A DNA stretch of 64,000 nucleotides. Source: an uncultured bacterium. Its GTDB lineage: Bacteria > Cyanobacteriota > Vampirovibrionia > Gastranaerophilales > Gastranaerophilaceae. The stretch covers positions 19,977-83,976 of the forward strand of contig CAIPUE010000023.1 in NCBI GenBank assembly GCA_903868125.1, given 5' to 3'. Positions 1,959 through 9,048 of this stretch are shown one piece after another; within the stretch, counting starts at the first letter, position 1, and every line of letters begins with the position of its first letter. The translations under genes were made by a program, and so were the position numbers. The notes below the pieces were generated by a model that was not told where the DNA came from, searched no databases, and was given only the letters and a program-made list of their open reading frames with translations.

Positions 1959-1971
1959 AATTAATATAAAT

Positions 1972-4900
1972 ATGAAAAATTTTTTTGAAGAATATCACGA
2001 ACTTTTATACAACTGCAATAAACCTTATCAATATGTTGGCGGTGAGTTTTTGTCACGCAATAAAAAATTTGAAGCCGCAAAAGTTACCTTTGCATTCGCT
2101 TTTCCCGACAAGTACGAAATTGGGATAAGTAATCTTGGGCAAAGGGTTCTATATGGAATTGTTAACGATCATCCGGATTTTATGGCGGACAGAATTTATG
2201 CTCCAGAGGCGGATTTTAAAAAGAATTTAATAGAAACAGGAAAAGAGTTTTACTCGCTTGAAAGCAAAACTCCGTTGAAAAACTTTGACTTAATAGGGTT
2301 TTCGCTTCAATATGAAATGTCTTATCCGACTGTACTTGCGATGATGGAGATGGCAAAATTTCCTCATAAATCGAGCGAACGAGGTGAAAACGACCCGATA
2401 ATTCTTGCGGGAGGACCTTGTGTTTATAACCCTTTACCACTTGCAGATTTTATTGATGCTTTTTTAATCGGCGATGGTGAGGAGGTTGTTTTAGAGGTTT
2501 GCGAAGCGATAAAATTTGCCAAGGATAAGGGGCTTTCACGTGAAGAAAAAATCCGAAAAATATCGCAAATAGAGGGCGTTTTCGTACCCGCAATTTCAAC
2601 AAACAAAGTTAAAAAACGACTTGTGCAAATCGGGTACGAAAACGCCCTCAAAGCTTATCCAATACCTTTTTGCTCCTCTGTGCATGACAGGGCGATTGTG
2701 GAAATTCGACGCGGTTGTGGAAGAATGTGCAGGTTTTGTCAGCCGGGGCACGTGAATTTGCCGGTGAGAGAAAGAAGCGCAGAAGATATAATAAAAATTG
2801 CAAAAGAATTAGTCAAAAACACAGGATATGACGAATATTCATTGCTTTCTTTGTCGTCAAACGAATATTCAAATATTAAAGAAGTGATTAAAGAACTTGC
2901 CATTGATTTTGACGATAAAAGAGTTTCCGTTTCACTTCCGAGCCAAAGAATTGACGGTTTTAACCTTGAGCTGGCTAATTTGGTTCAAAGTGTTCGAAAA
3001 TCCACCATGACACTTGCTCCTGAGGCAGGAAGTCAAAGGCTTAGAGATGTTATTAGAAAAAATATAACGGAATCACAGATTTTAGATGCCGTTTTAACAT
3101 TATACGAAAACGGCTGGTCGAAGATTAAATTTTATTTTATCATCGGGCTTCCGACAGAAACGCTCGCCGATGTTGATGAGATGGTCAATTTACTTGAAGA
3201 AATCAAGTATCGGACAAAAACTCTCAAACGCGAAAAAGGGTTAAAACACGGGTTGGATTTGACATGTACACTTTCGATTTTTGTGCCGAAGCCGTTTACG
3301 CCTTTTCAATGGTTTGGGCAGTCGGATTTAAGTGAAGTGACGGAAAGAATTCATTATTTAAAAGATAAGACGAAGCATATAAAAGGGCTTAAAATAAATT
3401 ACCATGAGCAATCAGTATCACAACTCGAGGCGGTTTTGACCCGTGGGGGCACTGAACTTTGTAATTATATCGAAAAACTTTGGCAAAAGGGATGTTATTT
3501 GGATGCTTGGGGGGAACATTTTGACAGGCATGTTTGGCGAGAAACTGCCGAGGAATTGGGAATTTCACTGAAGGACTTGGCGGAAAAAGAGTATTCAACG
3601 GAAGAAAATTTGCCATGGGATTTTATTGATATCGGGGTTGAGAAAGATTGGCTGATTTCTGAATATAAAAGCGCACTTGGAAATATAACAAAACCGTCCT
3701 GCGAAACAGGGTGCGTACAATGCGGCGTTTGCTCGAATTTTAATACGCACAAGGTCTTGGATAAGCCGTATTTGAATAAAAAGGAAAAAGAGAAAAGGGA
3801 AACTGAGGTAGAAAGCCGTTTACCGTTTACCGTTAACCGTTTACCCAACAAATATCGTATTAAATTAACAAAAACAGGCATTCTGCGTTATTTTTCTCAT
3901 CTTGATTGGCAAAATACTTTTCATAAAGCAATAGCTAGAAGCGGTCTGAACGTTGTGTTTTCGCAAGGATTTAATCCCTCGATGAAGGTATCTTTGGGCG
4001 TTGCTCTTCCGCTTTTTGTCGAGAGCGAATGTGAGCTTGTGGATATAGAAATTTATAACGAGCCGATAATCTCCTTGACGGGGAAAGAGCTAGGAGAGTT
4101 CGAAAACGAAGCGGATTTGCGAAAAGCCGCGATTGCCTATTACAAAAAAAATATTCAGGGGATAACAGTTGAACATCCTGTTTTAGGTGGAATTCAGTTT
4201 ACAGGTAGCGGGCTTGCTAAAACTAAAGATGCCAGTGCGGATATTTGTAAATTGCAAATAATATCAAAATTGCTTGAATTGGTTCAAACTGGACTATACG
4301 AAGGTTCATTACCACCGTACAAATCAAATAGTAAATTTAAAAAATATCATTATTTAACAAATAAAATTTTTATTGGTGGGGAAATATTTAAACATAGAAT
4401 AACGATAGGCGAAGATACAAATGGGAATAAATATTACAATATAAATGACATAAAATATAGCCCATCGACATTGACCGGCGTACAACCACCGGGTACCGAT
4501 GAGCTAAAAAAAGGTTCAGAAACTTTTACCAGGTTACAAAACTTGGATGCTAATGAACCTAATAATATTATACAACATTCGAACCCTAATTTCAACCCCT
4601 CCGACGAAAGCGAAATAACCTCGCTCCAACTAAAGTTGGAAAAAATTCTTCCTGAGGGTTGCGAAATAATAAGTATTGTAAAACTCGATAAATCTGCCAA
4701 AGCTATTGATAATACAGTGCAATGGGCTGAATACCAAATTAAGCTTTTTGATGAGACTATTCAAAATTTTGAAAGTTTGCGCTATAATATGGAAAGAGTT
4801 TTGTCTTCTGAAGAAATTTTACTGACGAAGAAAAACAAAAAAGGATTTTTAAAAAGCATAAACATAAAACCCGCCATCAAATCATATAGATTTGGAGGTA

Positions 4901-5058
4901 AAAGTGAGGGAAATTGTTTATTCATAATTTTAAAAACAGGTCAGGGTGGTGACATCCCTGCACTGAGAGCCGATGATTTAATGAAAATCGTCTCGCCTGA
5001 TATTTTATTTGATATTAAACGAATGAAGTTTTTTGATGAAAATATCAATGAAATATGA
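1972..5058 (+). CDS. B12-binding-domain radical SAM protein (TIGR03960-like) fused to a DUF2344/TIGR03936-like radical-SAM-linked domain
   Basis: 1028 aa. Cys triad CGRMCRFC (C-x3-C-x2-C, aa 249-256). The C-terminal KYRIKLTKTGILRYFSHLDW..SQGFNP matches DUF2344. The gene lies directly upstream of RNase E/G, the usual neighbourhood for this family. Confidence 0.85.
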   Translation: MKNFFEEYHELLYNCNKPYQYVGGEFLSRNKKFEAAKVTFAFAFPDKYEIGISNLGQRVLYGIVNDHPDFMADRIYAPEADFKKNLIETGKEFYSLESKTPLKNFDLIGFSLQYEMSYPTVLAMMEMAKFPHKSSERGENDPIILAGGPCVYNPLPLADFIDAFLIGDGEEVVLEVCEAIKFAKDKGLSREEKIRKISQIEGVFVPAISTNKVKKRLVQIGYENALKAYPIPFCSSVHDRAIVEIRRGCGRMCRFCQPGHVNLPVRERSAEDIIKIAKELVKNTGYDEYSLLSLSSNEYSNIKEVIKELAIDFDDKRVSVSLPSQRIDGFNLELANLVQSVRKSTMTLAPEAGSQRLRDVIRKNITESQILDAVLTLYENGWSKIKFYFIIGLPTETLADVDEMVNLLEEIKYRTKTLKREKGLKHGLDLTCTLSIFVPKPFTPFQWFGQSDLSEVTERIHYLKDKTKHIKGLKINYHEQSVSQLEAVLTRGGTELCNYIEKLWQKGCYLDAWGEHFDRHVWRETAEELGISLKDLAEKEYSTEENLPWDFIDIGVEKDWLISEYKSALGNITKPSCETGCVQCGVCSNFNTHKVLDKPYLNKKEKEKRETEVESRLPFTVNRLPNKYRIKLTKTGILRYFSHLDWQNTFHKAIARSGLNVVFSQGFNPSMKVSLGVALPLFVESECELVDIEIYNEPIISLTGKELGEFENEADLRKAAIAYYKKNIQGITVEHPVLGGIQFTGSGLAKTKDASADICKLQIISKLLELVQTGLYEGSLPPYKSNSKFKKYHYLTNKIFIGGEIFKHRITIGEDTNGNKYYNINDIKYSPSTLTGVQPPGTDELKKGSETFTRLQNLDANEPNNIIQHSNPNFNPSDESEITSLQLKLEKILPEGCEIISIVKLDKSAKAIDNTVQWAEYQIKLFDETIQNFESLRYNMERVLSSEEILLTKKNKKGFLKSINIKPAIKSYRFGGKSEGNCLFIILKTGQGGDIPALRADDLMKIVSPDILFDIKRMKFFDENINEI
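3816..3846 (-). repeat. inverted heptamer array inside a CDS (translated as RLPFTVNRLP)
   Basis: CCGTTTACCGTTTACCGTTAACCGTTTACCC within 1972..5058. Confidence 0.9.
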
Positions 5059-5167: not shown

Positions 5168-7000
5168 ATGGAAAAAACAGGAAAAAAGATTATTATCGCA
5201 GAACGCGATAATATTGCTGCGATTATGGAAGGAAAAAAAGTCTCGGAATTTTTTGTTCACAGAGGTGACATTTTATTGGGCGATATTTATTTAGCGAAAG
5301 TCGAAAATATTCTACCAAGTATCGAAGCGGCATTTGTTGACGTTGGGGTCGATAAAATGGGGTTTTTACACGCACAAGATGTTGTCGGAAAAGGTGCGCT
5401 TAAAGATAAGCTTTCACCAAAACAAAAATTAGTGGTTCAGGTTGTGAAAGAACCGACAGGACACAAAGGGCCGAGAGTTACAACAGAAATAAGTCTGCCG
5501 GGAAGATTTTTGGTACTTATCCCGAACGAAACGGGGATTAACGTAAGCAGAAAAATAGATAGCGTTAAGGAAAAAGCCCGTTTAAAATCAATTGTAAACT
5601 TGCTAAAACCTGTAGGCGTAGGGGTTATTGTAAGAACCGAAGCTGCAGGTCAATCAGAGGCGGATATTCAGGAAGATTTGGAAGTATTGTTGGAAAAATG
5701 GAATAATATTGTAACTTCTGCTGATAGTTTAACCGCTCCGGCTTTGATTTCCAGAGATCAGGATCTTTTATACAGGGTCTTGAGAGAAGCTTGTACCGAC
5801 GATATTTCAGAAATTGTTGTCGACACCGTTTTCGCTATGAACAGAGTCCAACAGTTGCTTCAAAACTGGCATATGAGCCGAAATATTGAGGTTTCTTTGT
5901 ATAAGGGTACAGAACCGCTTTTGATTGCAACAGATGTTTATAAAGAAATTAAAACAGCACTTCAAACAAAGGTTAATTTACCTTCAGGCGGTTATTTGTA
6001 CATTCAAACAACCGAAGCCCTCAGCGTAATTGACGTGAACAGCGGTAAATTTACAAGCTCCGCAACTCAGGATGAAACTATTTTAAGAACGAATAAAGAA
6101 GCTATACACGAAATAGCAAGACAGTTACGTCTAAGAAATATTGGCGGGATGATTATCGTCGATTTTATTGATATGACTTCGCGCGTTGATAAATTAACAA
6201 TTTTGGAAGAATTTGAACTTGCGCTTGAACCTGATAAATCAAAACCTCAAATCGGGCAACTTTCTGATTTGGGACTTGTAGAGCTTACAAGGCACAGACA
6301 GGGGCAAAGTTTGTCTGAACTTTTTACAAAAAAATGTCCTCATTGTCAAGGAAACGGCTATGTGATGGAAGATTTTAAATTTGCTTCACCTACCGCAGAA
6401 GGCGAATATCGAGCAAAGGCAGCTAAATTAAAGCTTCCGGTGAGTAATTTCAAGAAAAACACTCCGATTAATAATTTCAAAAAAGAATTTAACACTCAAC
6501 AAAATGAAGCGCAGGGCGAAACTGAAACCGAAATTGTTGGTGAAAATAGTCTGCAATTACAGGAGAATAGAAACCGTAACAATAACAACAGACGAAATAA
6601 ATTCAATCGGAACAAAAACAGAGACAGATTCCCGATAGAAAATCAGGAACAAATAGGGGTTCAACCTGCCGGAGAAAGACCTGTTTTTGAGGGTAGACCA
6701 CAAGCCGTACTTCAACCTTTGGAAGAAAGACCTGTTTTTGAAAGTAGACCACAAGCCGTGGCTCAACCTGTTGAAGTAAAGCCAGCAGTTGAGATAAAGC
6801 CTCAATTTGAACAAAAACCGTTAATTCAATCGCCTCCGATAACGGAAATTAAAACGTCTGAATCAACGCAAATTGTCCAAGAAAATACGACTGAAGAAAA
6901 ACCTAAAAAAGCTATCAGAAGACCAAACAGAAATACTTCAAAGAGAGTTAAAGCAACGAATACTGAGGTGAAGAATGAAGAAGCACCCGACGCTTTATAA
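5168..7000 (+). CDS. rne: ribonuclease E/G family endoribonuclease
   Basis: 610 aa. S1 domain (GDIYLAKVENILPSIEAAFVDVG), catalytic core, Zn-link CPHCQGNGYV. Low-complexity N/R/P/Q-rich C-terminal tail. Confidence 0.9.
   Translation: MEKTGKKIIIAERDNIAAIMEGKKVSEFFVHRGDILLGDIYLAKVENILPSIEAAFVDVGVDKMGFLHAQDVVGKGALKDKLSPKQKLVVQVVKEPTGHKGPRVTTEISLPGRFLVLIPNETGINVSRKIDSVKEKARLKSIVNLLKPVGVGVIVRTEAAGQSEADIQEDLEVLLEKWNNIVTSADSLTAPALISRDQDLLYRVLREACTDDISEIVVDTVFAMNRVQQLLQNWHMSRNIEVSLYKGTEPLLIATDVYKEIKTALQTKVNLPSGGYLYIQTTEALSVIDVNSGKFTSSATQDETILRTNKEAIHEIARQLRLRNIGGMIIVDFIDMTSRVDKLTILEEFELALEPDKSKPQIGQLSDLGLVELTRHRQGQSLSELFTKKCPHCQGNGYVMEDFKFASPTAEGEYRAKAAKLKLPVSNFKKNTPINNFKKEFNTQQNEAQGETETEIVGENSLQLQENRNRNNNNRRNKFNRNKNRDRFPIENQEQIGVQPAGERPVFEGRPQAVLQPLEERPVFESRPQAVAQPVEVKPAVEIKPQFEQKPLIQSPPITEIKTSESTQIVQENTTEEKPKKAIRRPNRNTSKRVKATNTEVKNEEAPDAL
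6674..6775 (+). repeat. 51-bp x2 in-frame tandem repeat in the RNase E/G tail
   Basis: ERPVFEGRPQAVLQPLE / ERPVFESRPQAVAQPVE. The units start at 6674 and 6725. Confidence 0.9.
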
Positions 7001-7484: not shown

Positions 7485-8888
7485 ATGAAAATTGCGCTGA
7501 TTCCGATAGATAATCGACCCGTTTGTTACAATTTGGCGCAAGAAATAGCAAATATAGACAATGGTTTGGAACTTTTTTTACCTGACAGAAAACTTTTAGG
7601 CTCACTTCGTTCAATTGCGGATATTGAGGGGATTTTGAATTGGCTTACAAATCTTGAAAATGTAGATGCAATCATTGTTTCACTTGATACCATTGCTTAT
7701 GGGGGTTTAATCTCATCAAGAAGAAGCAAAGACAATCTTAACGAAATTAAAATCAGAGTAGAAAAATTTAAGGATAAATTCAAAGGGAAAGTTTATGCTT
7801 TTTCAAGTATAATGCGGATTTCTAATAACAACATCAATGAAGAGGAAAAAAAATATTGGGACAATTTCGGTACAAAAATATTTGAATATTCTTATAATTT
7901 TCACAAAGAAGGCATTGATAAAAGTGATATTCCTGATAAAATTTTAACCGATTATCTTGCTACAAGACAAAGAAATTTTCAAACAAACAAAATGTATCTC
8001 GGCTGGCTTGAGGAAGGAATATTTGATACGCTTGTATTTTCAAAAGATGATTGTGCGGAATTTGGGCTTAATGTCTTGGAATCTGAAATTTTAGACAGAA
8101 TAATTAAAGAAAAAAATCTCCCTGCATTTGTAAAAACCGGTGCGGACGAAATTCCTTTGACGCTTATGGCACGCGCAATTACTGATTGGAAGTGTAAAGG
8201 TTGTGAGGCGCCAAAAATTTCTGCGAAATTTTTGGCGCCTCAACATAAAGATTTAATTTCTCATTACGAAGATATTTCTATCGAAAAAAGTGTTCAGGCA
8301 CAAATTGAACTTGCAGGTTGGAAGTTGGCAAACGAGCAAGAGTCAGATATAGTCTTAGTTGTGAACAACTTTGAACAAAATCAGGGCGAAATTGTTATGA
8401 ATATTAAAACAAAGCCTTTCAGTGAAAAGTTTGAATTCCCCCAAAAGCCTTTTATGATAGCGGATGTAAGATTTGCAAACGGGTCTGATAACAAATTTGT
8501 TGCTAAAATATTAAAAAAACAGATAGATTTTGAAAATTTTTACGGGTACAGCGCTTGGAATACAAGTGCAAACAGCTTAGGTAGTTTAATTTGTGCCGGT
8601 ATTGTGAGGTTTTTGGCTCAAGATTTTAACGAAGAAGCGTTTAAAAAACTCCAGATGGTAAGATTTTTGGATGATTGGACTTATCAGGCGAATGTTAGGC
8701 AGGGGCTAAGGGGTAAACGGGAAACGGTAAACGGTAAACGGAATGAGCCAAGACCTGATGTCAGGAAGTTAAAAAAGCTTATGCTTCCTTATGAAAAAAA
8801 GTTGCAAAAGATTTTTGGGATAAAACCTGAAATAAAATATCAATTCCCATGGAAACGATTTTTTGAAGTGGAAATCGGGGTTAAGTGA
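7485..8888 (+). CDS. DUF4127 family protein
   Basis: 467 aa. The N-terminus MKIALIPIDNRPVCYN...DAIIVSLDTIAYGGLISSR matches the DUF4127 pattern (IPLDERPCN ... D.L.YGGL..SR). Confidence 0.7.
   Translation: MKIALIPIDNRPVCYNLAQEIANIDNGLELFLPDRKLLGSLRSIADIEGILNWLTNLENVDAIIVSLDTIAYGGLISSRRSKDNLNEIKIRVEKFKDKFKGKVYAFSSIMRISNNNINEEEKKYWDNFGTKIFEYSYNFHKEGIDKSDIPDKILTDYLATRQRNFQTNKMYLGWLEEGIFDTLVFSKDDCAEFGLNVLESEILDRIIKEKNLPAFVKTGADEIPLTLMARAITDWKCKGCEAPKISAKFLAPQHKDLISHYEDISIEKSVQAQIELAGWKLANEQESDIVLVVNNFEQNQGEIVMNIKTKPFSEKFEFPQKPFMIADVRFANGSDNKFVAKILKKQIDFENFYGYSAWNTSANSLGSLICAGIVRFLAQDFNEEAFKKLQMVRFLDDWTYQANVRQGLRGKRETVNGKRNEPRPDVRKLKKLMLPYEKKLQKIFGIKPEIKYQFPWKRFFEVEIGVK
8711..8741 (+). repeat. heptamer array inside a CDS (translated as GKRETVNGKRN)
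   Basis: GGGTAAACGGGAAACGGTAAACGGTAAACGG within 7485..8888. Confidence 0.9.
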
Positions 8889-8890
8889 GT

Positions 8891-9048
8891 GGACGGGTGA
8901 ACGGTAAACAGTGAACGGTAAACGGCGAGGTCGTTAAAGTAGGGTGGGTTCCCTAACCCACCGACAATAAACGCAGAGGAAGCAAAAAGCAAAAAGTAAG
9001 CAAGAACCGCAAAGCTGTTAAACTCTTCGACTATTCAACTGTTCGACT
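8891..9048 (+). repeat. composite intergenic repeat B (heptamers, GTAG hairpin, AAGTAAGCAAGAAC box, octamer array)
   Basis: Heptamers 8891-8925. GTAGGGTGGGTTCCCTAACCCACCGACAATAAA at 8939-8971. Box at 8994-9007. CTCTTCGA CTATTCAA CTGTTCGA at 9023-9048. Confidence 0.9.

Follow-up and report, generated by a model that had tools for sequence, protein, structure and literature searches.

Here we report that a loop of a conserved enzyme domain in an uncultured bacterium of the Gastranaerophilaceae is occupied by what its sequence identifies as a discrete unit of phage origin, in which a translated LPD3 domain is combined with a predicted small-RNA gene on the minus strand. The Gastranaerophilales are a gut-dwelling order of non-photosynthetic relatives of cyanobacteria. 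The analysed DNA, called the window in the following, is a stretch of 64,000 nucleotides (nt) from contig CAIPUE010000023.1 (assembly GCA_903868125.1, positions 19,977 to 83,976), and the affected gene encodes a B12-binding radical-SAM enzyme fused to a DUF2344 domain (hereafter rSAM-DUF2344). With a probability of roughly 0.6 we read the insertion as a phage-derived cassette that has been spread by recombination, is translated in frame and left unspliced, and possibly pairs an effector with a regulator, the predicted antisense RNA. A preliminary description of this DNA had seen the protein domain only; the DNA encoding the disordered linker behind that domain adds an antisense promoter and a predicted small-RNA gene, all within a recurrent cassette. 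The features on which the argument is built are, in window coordinates:

1972-5058, plus strand: host gene, a TIGR03960 B12-binding radical-SAM enzyme fused to TIGR03936/DUF2344, 1028 amino acids (aa) (list of open reading frames (ORFs), translation, Pfam, NCBIfam)
3850-4059, plus strand: N-terminal half of DUF2344, aa 627-696, profile positions 1-70 (Pfam/NCBIfam profile match; G000:C23:23826-24035)
4066-4599, plus strand: inserted cassette, aa 699-876, 534 nt, translated in frame with the host protein (ortholog alignment, low G+C content, absence from 38 of 41 relatives)
4066-4455, plus strand: LPD3 domain, aa 699-828, with the Pfam match at aa 712-822 (nt 4105-4437) (PF18798, AlphaFold2, matches to viral models in BFVD, phmmer)
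4200-4530, no strand assigned: allele-swapped mosaic segment, which covers LPD3 over its C-terminal two thirds together with the proximal hairpin and a portion of the small RNA (DNA and aa identity to the congener, synonymous divergence (dS) from P0003)
4452-4506, minus strand: predicted small RNA copy B, of the same architecture as copy A, promoterless, followed by AUAUUUUAU (covariance model R1, fold, allele comparison)
4506-4560, minus strand: predicted small RNA copy A, start near 4560, 48-nt structure, then U7 (4506-4512) as intrinsic terminator (fold, covariation, model R1)
4567-4595, minus strand: sigma-70-type promoter with -35 box TTGAAA (4595-4590), 17-nt spacer and -10 box TATAAT (4572-4567) (promoter scan, 11/12; conservation across units)
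4600-5055, plus strand: C-terminal half of DUF2344, aa 877-1028, with profile positions 73-172 at nt 4612-4950 (profile match and ortholog alignment)

The host protein is recognised by TIGR03960 at aa 10-588 (629.6 bits), followed by TIGR03936 (142.3 bits, cut-off 71.9) and PF10105 (131.9 bits, cut-off 23.8), both of which match in two separate stretches, with the break at profile position 70/72. Orthologs of the same family that lack the insert read ...DIELxxx-(8 residues)-KLEKxLP..., and the window protein carries its extra residues at exactly that point; aligned to them, the cassette adds ~178 aa between the DUF2344 halves. Its G+C content is 0.32-0.34 compared to 0.38-0.41 in the flanking parts of the host gene. 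The preliminary description had proposed a foreign domain of ~185 aa, inserted in frame into this loop at 4066-4620 and flanked by the motifs IEIYNEP and LQLKLEKILPEGCEII. The quoted peptide and both motifs are found in the translation as given, and the domain proved real, since the profile match is split, the gap is filled by foreign sequence and 38 of 41 relatives are unsplit. Of the proposed bounds, the start is exact, while the end lies about 21 nt too far and is placed at 4599 by ortholog alignment. Each of the 41 genomes searched from this family or order has a DUF2344 domain. It is continuous in 38 of them, in frames of about 830-890 aa, and split only in the window's genome, whose single DUF2344 gene is the cassette-bearing one, in the congener G001 and in G024, which belongs to another genus. 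Among the best 120 of 1745 homologs from a collection of 5.8 billion proteins, PF18798 is present in 18, the others being about 835-870 aa long. Hence, a native DUF2344 subdomain is ruled out, since the insert is limited to few lineages and is absent from 38 of 41 relatives as well as from about 100 of the 120 best homologs. LPD3 and DUF2344 have both been catalogued before, and the co-occurrence of PF10105 with PF18798 can already be read from precomputed Pfam strings.

The insert is a full-length LPD3 domain: PF18798 matches it over profile positions 2-114 of 114 with 71.6 bits (cut-off 27; E = 7.7e-20), and a six-frame search of the genome returns the match with 72.8 bits. In a structural comparison with viral models (BFVD) by Foldseek, the predicted fold finds 13 matches at E <= 1e-3, all of them phage polyvalent or LPD3 proteins, among them an LPD3-annotated Siphoviridae protein (root-mean-square deviation 2.3 over 117 columns). 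The profile and fold matches thus bear out the proposal that the insert is an accessory domain of phage and conjugative-element polyvalent proteins. Searching 1.84 billion representative sequences with phmmer yields 466 relatives, and the top 150 range from 123 to 4309 aa, with only one rSAM-DUF2344 protein among them. Since the phmmer matches begin at insert residue 2, the conserved LTGKELGEF strand is part of the LPD3 domain. A word search for short stand-alone homologs of 102-324 aa came up empty, which called for the exhaustive phmmer comparison. The window copy sits in a chromosomal rSAM-DUF2344 gene and not in a polyvalent, phage or conjugative-element protein; as location is a matter of context and not a sequence criterion, its membership in PF18798 stands. 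A weak match on contig C47, considered as a second LPD3 copy of the window genome, lies in RimM and is spurious. On the same contig, a protein next to rimM/trmD (L002, minus strand 1963-3117) has a long N-terminal array of GGYNQDRGGYNRPPQQ repeats. Other literature matches to 'LPD3' actually refer to LPD38 or LPD39.

According to AlphaFold2 models (48-sequence alignment), the insert folds independently. The predicted local distance difference test score (pLDDT) exceeds 90 for insert residues 1-130, which form, in order, a strand, a helix, two strands, two helices and four strands, and drops to about 43-66 for residues 131-185. In a model of the insert inside DUF2344 (aa 620-1028) the scores are 91-97 for LPD3, 30-48 for the tail, 75-95 for the C-terminal half of DUF2344 and lower for its N-terminal half. 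This pattern indicates an independently folding domain on a disordered tether, and the last 48 residues of the insert are predicted to be a disordered linker. No relative of LPD3 was found by sequence among the PDB chains, and a Foldseek search of the PDB returned nothing significant, with NTF2-like designs first and YafQ and CdiA-CT(EC3006) at E = 0.12-0.18. Across 48 family members only G49, G120 and Y124 are invariant or near-invariant. Neither the insert nor the whole protein matches a defence family of PADLOC-DB 2.0 at E <= 0.01.

The DNA behind LPD3 carries a second type of information. In every context, phage or host, LPD3 is followed by the peptide motif I-I-x6-F-N-P, and the antisense promoter is the exact reverse complement of its codons ATT ATA ... 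AAT TTC AAC CC. On the minus strand, all host and phage units that were compared read GGGTTGA(A/T)AT-N16-TATAAT or TATACT (GGGTTGAAAT-N16-TATAAT), with the spacer fixed at 17 nt. Among the units found via protein searches, the codons ATT-ATA ... TTC-AAC are used in 23 of 24, although TTC accounts for only 19% of Phe and AAC for 29% of Asn codons in the long ORFs of the window, which gives a joint expectation of 0.0087 per unit. The loci L084-L113 were excluded from this count because they had been fetched with the promoter pattern, so that their inclusion would have been circular. The six codons between II and FNP vary freely in the 24 units, and in a control, the strongly conserved peptide LTGKELGEF, which marks the opposite cassette end, proved to have free synonymous sites. 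In the window genome, the same promoter consensus also precedes an ordinary gene that has a ribosome-binding site, and in 201 genomes of the family it occurs 113 times compared to 4 control matches. It thus represents a strong-promoter form of this lineage and not a special recombination site. Two polyvalent-type LPD3 genes in metagenome-assembled genomes of an alphaproteobacterium (L073) and of Moraxella sp. (L074) likewise have a strong antisense promoter, a closed-stem RNA and a T-run, about 100-130 nt after the LPD3 domain; six other loci outside the family lack such a unit by the same criteria. In G085, a repeated element with the same promoter form (GGTTGAAATTTTTTGAGACATGGTATATAAT) is present at 12 sites, many of them at contig ends; either an insertion sequence or a multi-copy RNA gene could account for it.

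The RNA predicted to start from this promoter is short and structured. Copy A begins ~7 nt past the -10 box and folds into a 12-bp closing stem from +1, a 5-nt bulge and an inner hairpin whose UUUUGU loop is conserved. Covariance model R1 scores copy A with 66.2 bits and the tandem copy B with 66.3 bits (E = 6e-10); throughout the window genome it finds only these two copies and no orphans elsewhere. Alleles that are 19 aa shorter lack copy B, so that its presence or absence equals the allele length difference. For an analysis of covariation, 13 units were aligned without gaps and anchored on the promoter rather than on the structure. Hereby, 83% of the cells are paired compared to 30-48% when the partner strand is slid, and 12 of 19 pairs have changed on both sides. 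Such double changes affect 41 cells, a value that none of 500 shuffles reached (14.2 ± 3.1). The pairing moreover favours an RNA on the minus strand, as 34 G-U cells stand against 12 A-C cells. Nearly all units combine a closed stem at +1 with a subsequent T-run, their z-scores ranging from -2 to -6.4. The antisense small-RNA gene is thus predicted on four independent grounds, i.e. the promoter consensus, the fixation of synonymous sites, the terminator and covariation. No match at gathering score was obtained in the window with Rfam release 15, and the sole Rfam match at E <= 1 within 3900-4800, to SCARNA7 (13.9 bits), is spurious. In the rSAM-DUF2344 ortholog P0007 (L079), three tandem antisense promoter-plus-hairpin units with a period of about 108 nt follow a single LPD3 (gene positions ~2957-3173), which indicates that the RNA gene can be amplified independently of the protein domain.

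The same two-part unit recurs in phage DNA and in other host genes. In IMG/VR viral contigs it is accompanied by the same promoter and by a hairpin RNA of 49 nt; in phage DNA it is placed after the DUF2213 head-associated domain or within proteins of 2600-2750 aa, and the PHROGs matches of LPD3 are likewise located inside giant phage proteins. Within the same family, Pfam detects in-frame LPD3 in TsaD (two genomes), in MurD, in IleS and at the C-terminus of RsmA/KsgA. From metagenomes we recovered a TlyA-like S4-FtsJ methyltransferase in chromosomal context, CbiG and a GNAT protein, whose units are 47-57% identical to that of the window; in the TlyA and CbiG units the small RNA is of the same type. 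The Pfam domains split or extended with LPD3 are accordingly TsaD, Mur ligase, tRNA-synt_1, RrnaAD, FtsJ and CbiG. The rSAM-DUF2344 gene itself offers two further LPD3 sites, the junction between its N2 and core domains and its linker: G048 has cassettes at both of these sites and an intact DUF2344 loop, and G024 has them in linker and loop. By sequence, then, the cassette recurs in at least eight host genes or sites. In all five additional host insertions that were examined, an antisense promoter scoring 11/12 lies at the cassette edge, and three of them (RsmA/KsgA, IleS, TsaD) show a clear hairpin and T-run. The ends of the cassette are identical in phage and host genes, the left one being the first LPD3 strand and the right one lying exactly after the -35 box. 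As the right end includes the -35 box everywhere, the mobile unit includes the RNA gene. A search for transposon-like ends revealed no convincing direct or inverted repeats flanking the insert.

To follow the history of the cassette, we used a host-gene tree built from the host parts alone. Hereby, the loop insert proves patchy, and well-supported clades mix insert-bearing and insert-less proteins: P0009 groups with P0203 (support 100), P0008 with four insert-less proteins (96), and P0007/P0166 with P0230 (100). In a comparison of the window with the congener G001, DNA identity amounts to 93-100% in the host gene and falls to about 50-60% at nt ~4200-4530, and the corresponding aa identities are 95-98% in the host parts and 41% in that segment. 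The comparison with P0003 is the reverse, with a dS of 0.11 in the LPD3 core (core and tail about 0.1) and of about 1.3 in the host parts, which shows that the core was recently exchanged between lineages by recombination. Taken together, these sequence comparisons describe a presence/absence polymorphism whose core is exchanged between strains by homologous recombination. Most of the sequences stem from metagenome assemblies; the finding of P0003 in four samples from three sources and of the window protein on five contigs argues against chimeras. The ratio of nonsynonymous to synonymous substitution rates (dN/dS) amounts to 0.03-0.09 in the N-terminal part of LPD3 and to 0.28-0.34 in its core, as expected for a domain under purifying selection, and rises to 0.83 in the tail when this is read as protein, which fits a constraint at the nucleic-acid level. 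Among the orthologs, P0011 is devoid of LPD3 altogether and P0012 has lost it through an internal deletion; the promoter and the small RNA are intact in both.

Several known systems share traits with the cassette. The LPD3 domains of polyvalent proteins (PMC5512222) are its closest relatives, as both its profile match and its fold make the insert a full-length member of this family. Relatives of the insert adjoin ART-PolyVal and DUF2213 in phage proteins of 300-4300 aa. Polyvalent proteins are defined as phage or conjugative-element products that unite several conflict-related effector domains in one polypeptide; in contrast, the window copy lies inside a chromosomal housekeeping enzyme, in which LPD3 is the only such domain and the remainder is conserved and in conserved context. 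Similar to the 'captured' polyvalent proteins of Iyer et al. (2017), phage-derived polyvalent material is here found in a host chromosome outside a prophage, but as a single-domain cassette in frame in unrelated essential genes instead of a stand-alone polyvalent gene. The words 'antisense', 'small RNA', 'housekeeping' and 'inserted into' do not occur in that paper (PMC5512222), and a search of the literature found no paper on LPD3 insertion in housekeeping genes or on LPD3-linked antisense RNA. With inteins the cassette has in common that it is a foreign, in-frame and independently folding insert in essential genes with patchy, horizontal spread. Protein splicing was nevertheless rejected, in agreement with the preliminary description, which had seen no intein signatures: a Pfam scan (E <= 1) returned no Hint or intein profile, and the junctions ...YNEP/IISLTG... 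and ...NFNP/SDESE... offer no Cys/Ser/Thr nucleophile and no His-Asn, nor is there a homing endonuclease. Unlike an intein, the LPD3 insert is apparently retained in the mature protein. Rickettsia palindromic elements and other small in-frame repeats are likewise non-autonomous, tolerated at surface loops and read as extra peptide, yet the cassette is not palindromic and comprises, on about 530 bp, a folded domain under purifying selection and a predicted promoter-driven small-RNA gene. Type I (txpA/RatA and bsrG/SR4 of B. subtilis) and type III (ToxIN) toxin-antitoxin systems resemble the cassette in that a protein unit is coupled at its 3' end to a short structured RNA of the opposite strand with a strong promoter, here as predicted from the sequence. 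For type I systems, the antisense RNA overlaps the 3' part of the toxin; the predicted minus-strand unit lies just after LPD3, a resemblance at the sequence level. Tandem RNA units (two in the window, three in P0007) and protein-less variants that keep the RNA are further common traits. The protein partner differs, being a soluble-looking domain of 130 aa within larger proteins and not a small membrane peptide or a stand-alone endoRNase.

These comparisons suggest the following scenario. The cassette would have entered from phage DNA, and only those insertions would have survived that lie in frame and in sense at permissive loops of essential genes, where they would be hard to delete. Between related genomes it would then spread by ordinary homologous recombination through the flanking host sequence. 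By analogy with the systems named above, LPD3 and the antisense RNA would most likely form a pair of an effector domain and a cis-encoded regulator or antidote, in which the RNA may base-pair with the sense mRNA directly behind the stretch that codes for LPD3 (as in type I toxin-antitoxin systems) or else be bound by LPD3 (as in type III). A number of observations weigh against this scenario. The toxin-antidote or effector-regulator logic is itself drawn by analogy, with no PADLOC match and no significant similarity to a solved structure, and the purifying selection on the host copies of LPD3 equally fits a domesticated function. No insertion mechanism, target-site duplication, terminal repeat or mobility machinery was found. 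The promoters of the TlyA unit (TTTAAA/TATATT) and of the CbiG unit (-10 box TATATT) are weakened, and L048/L049 as well as the MurD unit have no clean T-run. For the small RNA of the window itself, the predicted fold is of only moderate strength (-11.8 kcal/mol, z = -2.4), and the sense strand folds as well. Outside the family, a strong antisense promoter with a hairpin is present at 2 of 8 LPD3 loci when strict criteria are applied. That the RNA part is the last to be lost, as would be expected, is weakly indicated by P0011 and P0012, two variants only.

Among the alternatives, it is rather unlikely, in our view, that LPD3 is a domesticated accessory domain which serves the enzyme in RNA or ribosome binding or in localisation, with the antisense RNA co-opted to tune the rSAM-DUF2344/RNase E/G operon. 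Such a role would agree with the dN/dS of 0.03-0.34 in host copies and with the retention of the insert at the DUF2344 loop in several genera. DUF2344 has been placed in a pseudouridine-synthase-like group (PMC7955657) and its model shows weak fold matches to TruA/PUS3, and many of the host genes (TsaD, TlyA, RsmA, IleS) act on RNA. However, the cassette also resides in MurD and CbiG, enzymes unrelated to RNA, its ends are common to phage and host genes, and close relatives live without it or with deleted versions. Moreover, the swap of the core allele for a 41%-identical version between congeners is typical of conflict genes and not of a fitted enzyme subdomain. We consider it distinctly unlikely that the insert is neutral debris, i.e. 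a prophage fragment that entered a tolerant loop by illegitimate recombination and was trapped there because imprecise deletion would destroy an important gene, the promoter and hairpin being inherited without a role in the host. The decay variants P0011 and P0012 with their core deletions, the TlyA copy with weakened promoter and terminator, the tail dN/dS of 0.83 and the failure to find mobility machinery would all be in line with this. Nonetheless, the host copies have kept the promoter's synonymous sites and the RNA pairing while the host genes diverged to a dS above 1, and their LPD3 is under purifying selection. The same defined ends in at least eight host genes or sites are not expected of random fragments, and the core was transferred horizontally in recent time (dS 0.11).

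Two further alternatives concern single parts of the cassette. The edge motif ATTATA-N17-TTTCAACCC could in principle be a recombination or integration site and the hairpin a DNA-level structure like integron attC, given that the motif marks the right-hand boundary of every cassette exactly and the hairpin follows at a fixed distance. We regard this as highly improbable, since the motif is a sigma-70 consensus with 17-nt spacing which also precedes an ordinary gene with a ribosome-binding site and is widespread in the family. The hairpin starts about 7 nt past the -10 box and is closed off by a U-run of the same strand, the G-U pairs favour a minus-strand RNA, and the left boundary has no matching site and free synonymous positions. 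The other alternative takes up the hint of the preliminary description at a Barnase/EndoU/RelE-like RNase: if LPD3 had a Barnase/EndoU/colicin/RelE (BECR) fold, it could lend the host protein a nuclease or toxin activity. For LPD3 this hint finds no significant support, and we judge it unlikely. The helices followed by a four-stranded antiparallel sheet in the LPD3 model are suggestive, as are YafQ and the CdiA-CT toxin of E. coli 3006 within the top 25 PDB matches (E = 0.12-0.18, probability 0.41-0.47), a 'cytotoxic translational repressor' among the viral matches (E = 0.16) and the pairing with an antisense RNA, which resembles toxin-antitoxin loci. Yet none of these fold matches is significant, NTF2-like designs score higher, and a set of catalytic residues could not be recognised, with G49, G120 and Y124 as the sole invariant or near-invariant columns. 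In addition, Iyer et al. list LPD3 among the domains of elusive function and do not count it among the potentially enzymatic LPDs, the predicted BECR RNases named there being the PBECR domains (PMC5512222).

Beyond the reading of a phage-derived, recombination-spread cassette, we tentatively raise the possibility, to which we give less than even odds, that LPD3-plus-antisense-RNA cassettes constitute an undescribed class of selfish elements. These would be dual-coding units of ~0.5 kb, with a protein domain encoded by one strand and an entire small-RNA gene concealed on the other within the disordered linker, derived from phage head or polyvalent genes, which colonise essential host genes in frame and unspliced, are held there by an addiction-like effector-antidote relation, and spread and diversify by recombination. 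In that case the sharply defined ends would reflect active or templated insertion and not chance. LPD3 is among the commonest domains of unknown function in phage polyvalent proteins, which are injected as cargo, and a co-inherited small RNA would be the first concrete handle on its role, be it in RNA binding, RNA-controlled toxicity or RNA delivery. If confirmed, the cassette would be a case of strict dual coding, with the II-x6-FNP peptide conserved solely as the reverse complement of a promoter, and the disordered linkers of giant phage proteins may hide genes more generally. Genes as central as those for IleS, MurD, TsaD, KsgA, TlyA and the radical-SAM enzyme would, again if confirmed, have been invaded repeatedly by an unspliced foreign module that is swapped between strains, and this kind of genome parasitism or innovation would differ from that of inteins and introns. 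For the annotation of metagenome-assembled genomes, this means that LPD3 inserts may pass for assembly errors or novel enzyme subfamilies.

Outside the cassette, the genomic context of the host gene is conserved. Next downstream lies the RNase E/G gene to which the preliminary description had already pointed:

5168-7000, plus strand: RNase E/G family gene, conserved context outside the cassette (PF10150 at 309 bits; same neighbour in orthologous contigs)

Both this adjacency and the fusion to TIGR03960 are expected for TIGR03936/DUF2344 proteins. The low-complexity C-terminal tail of the RNase E/G protein contains a 51-nt tandem duplication (6660-6761; peptide repeat ERPVFE(G/S)RPQAV). Directly upstream of rSAM-DUF2344, a conserved ORF of 114 aa without Pfam match is always present (1614-1958 in the window; 1143-1487 in L076, 1115-1459 in L077, 47-391 in L081), and the stretch upstream of it (about 1200-1500 of the window) has a raised G+C content of 0.44. 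Arrays of a 7-nt repeat (GGTAAAC / complement CCGTTTA) with 3-4.5 copies occur in both orientations at 1111-1141, 1206-1229, 3814-3851, 8697-8741 and 8895-8925; one of them lies inside the rSAM-DUF2344 linker, where it encodes SRLPFTVNRLP, and two lie in the C-terminus of a DUF4127 gene. In form they are similar to the short tandem heptamer repeats known from cyanobacteria; the rSAM-DUF2344 linker is hypervariable among orthologs. Finally, P0006, P0007 and P0011 carry GC-rich in-frame inserts at the junction of Radical_SAM_N2 and the radical-SAM core, with peptides such as APSPLAGEGWGEG, which are typical of small repeat elements read through as protein. As these inserts share the junction with the LPD3 cassettes of G048 and G160, the gene seems to possess a second permissive hot spot there.

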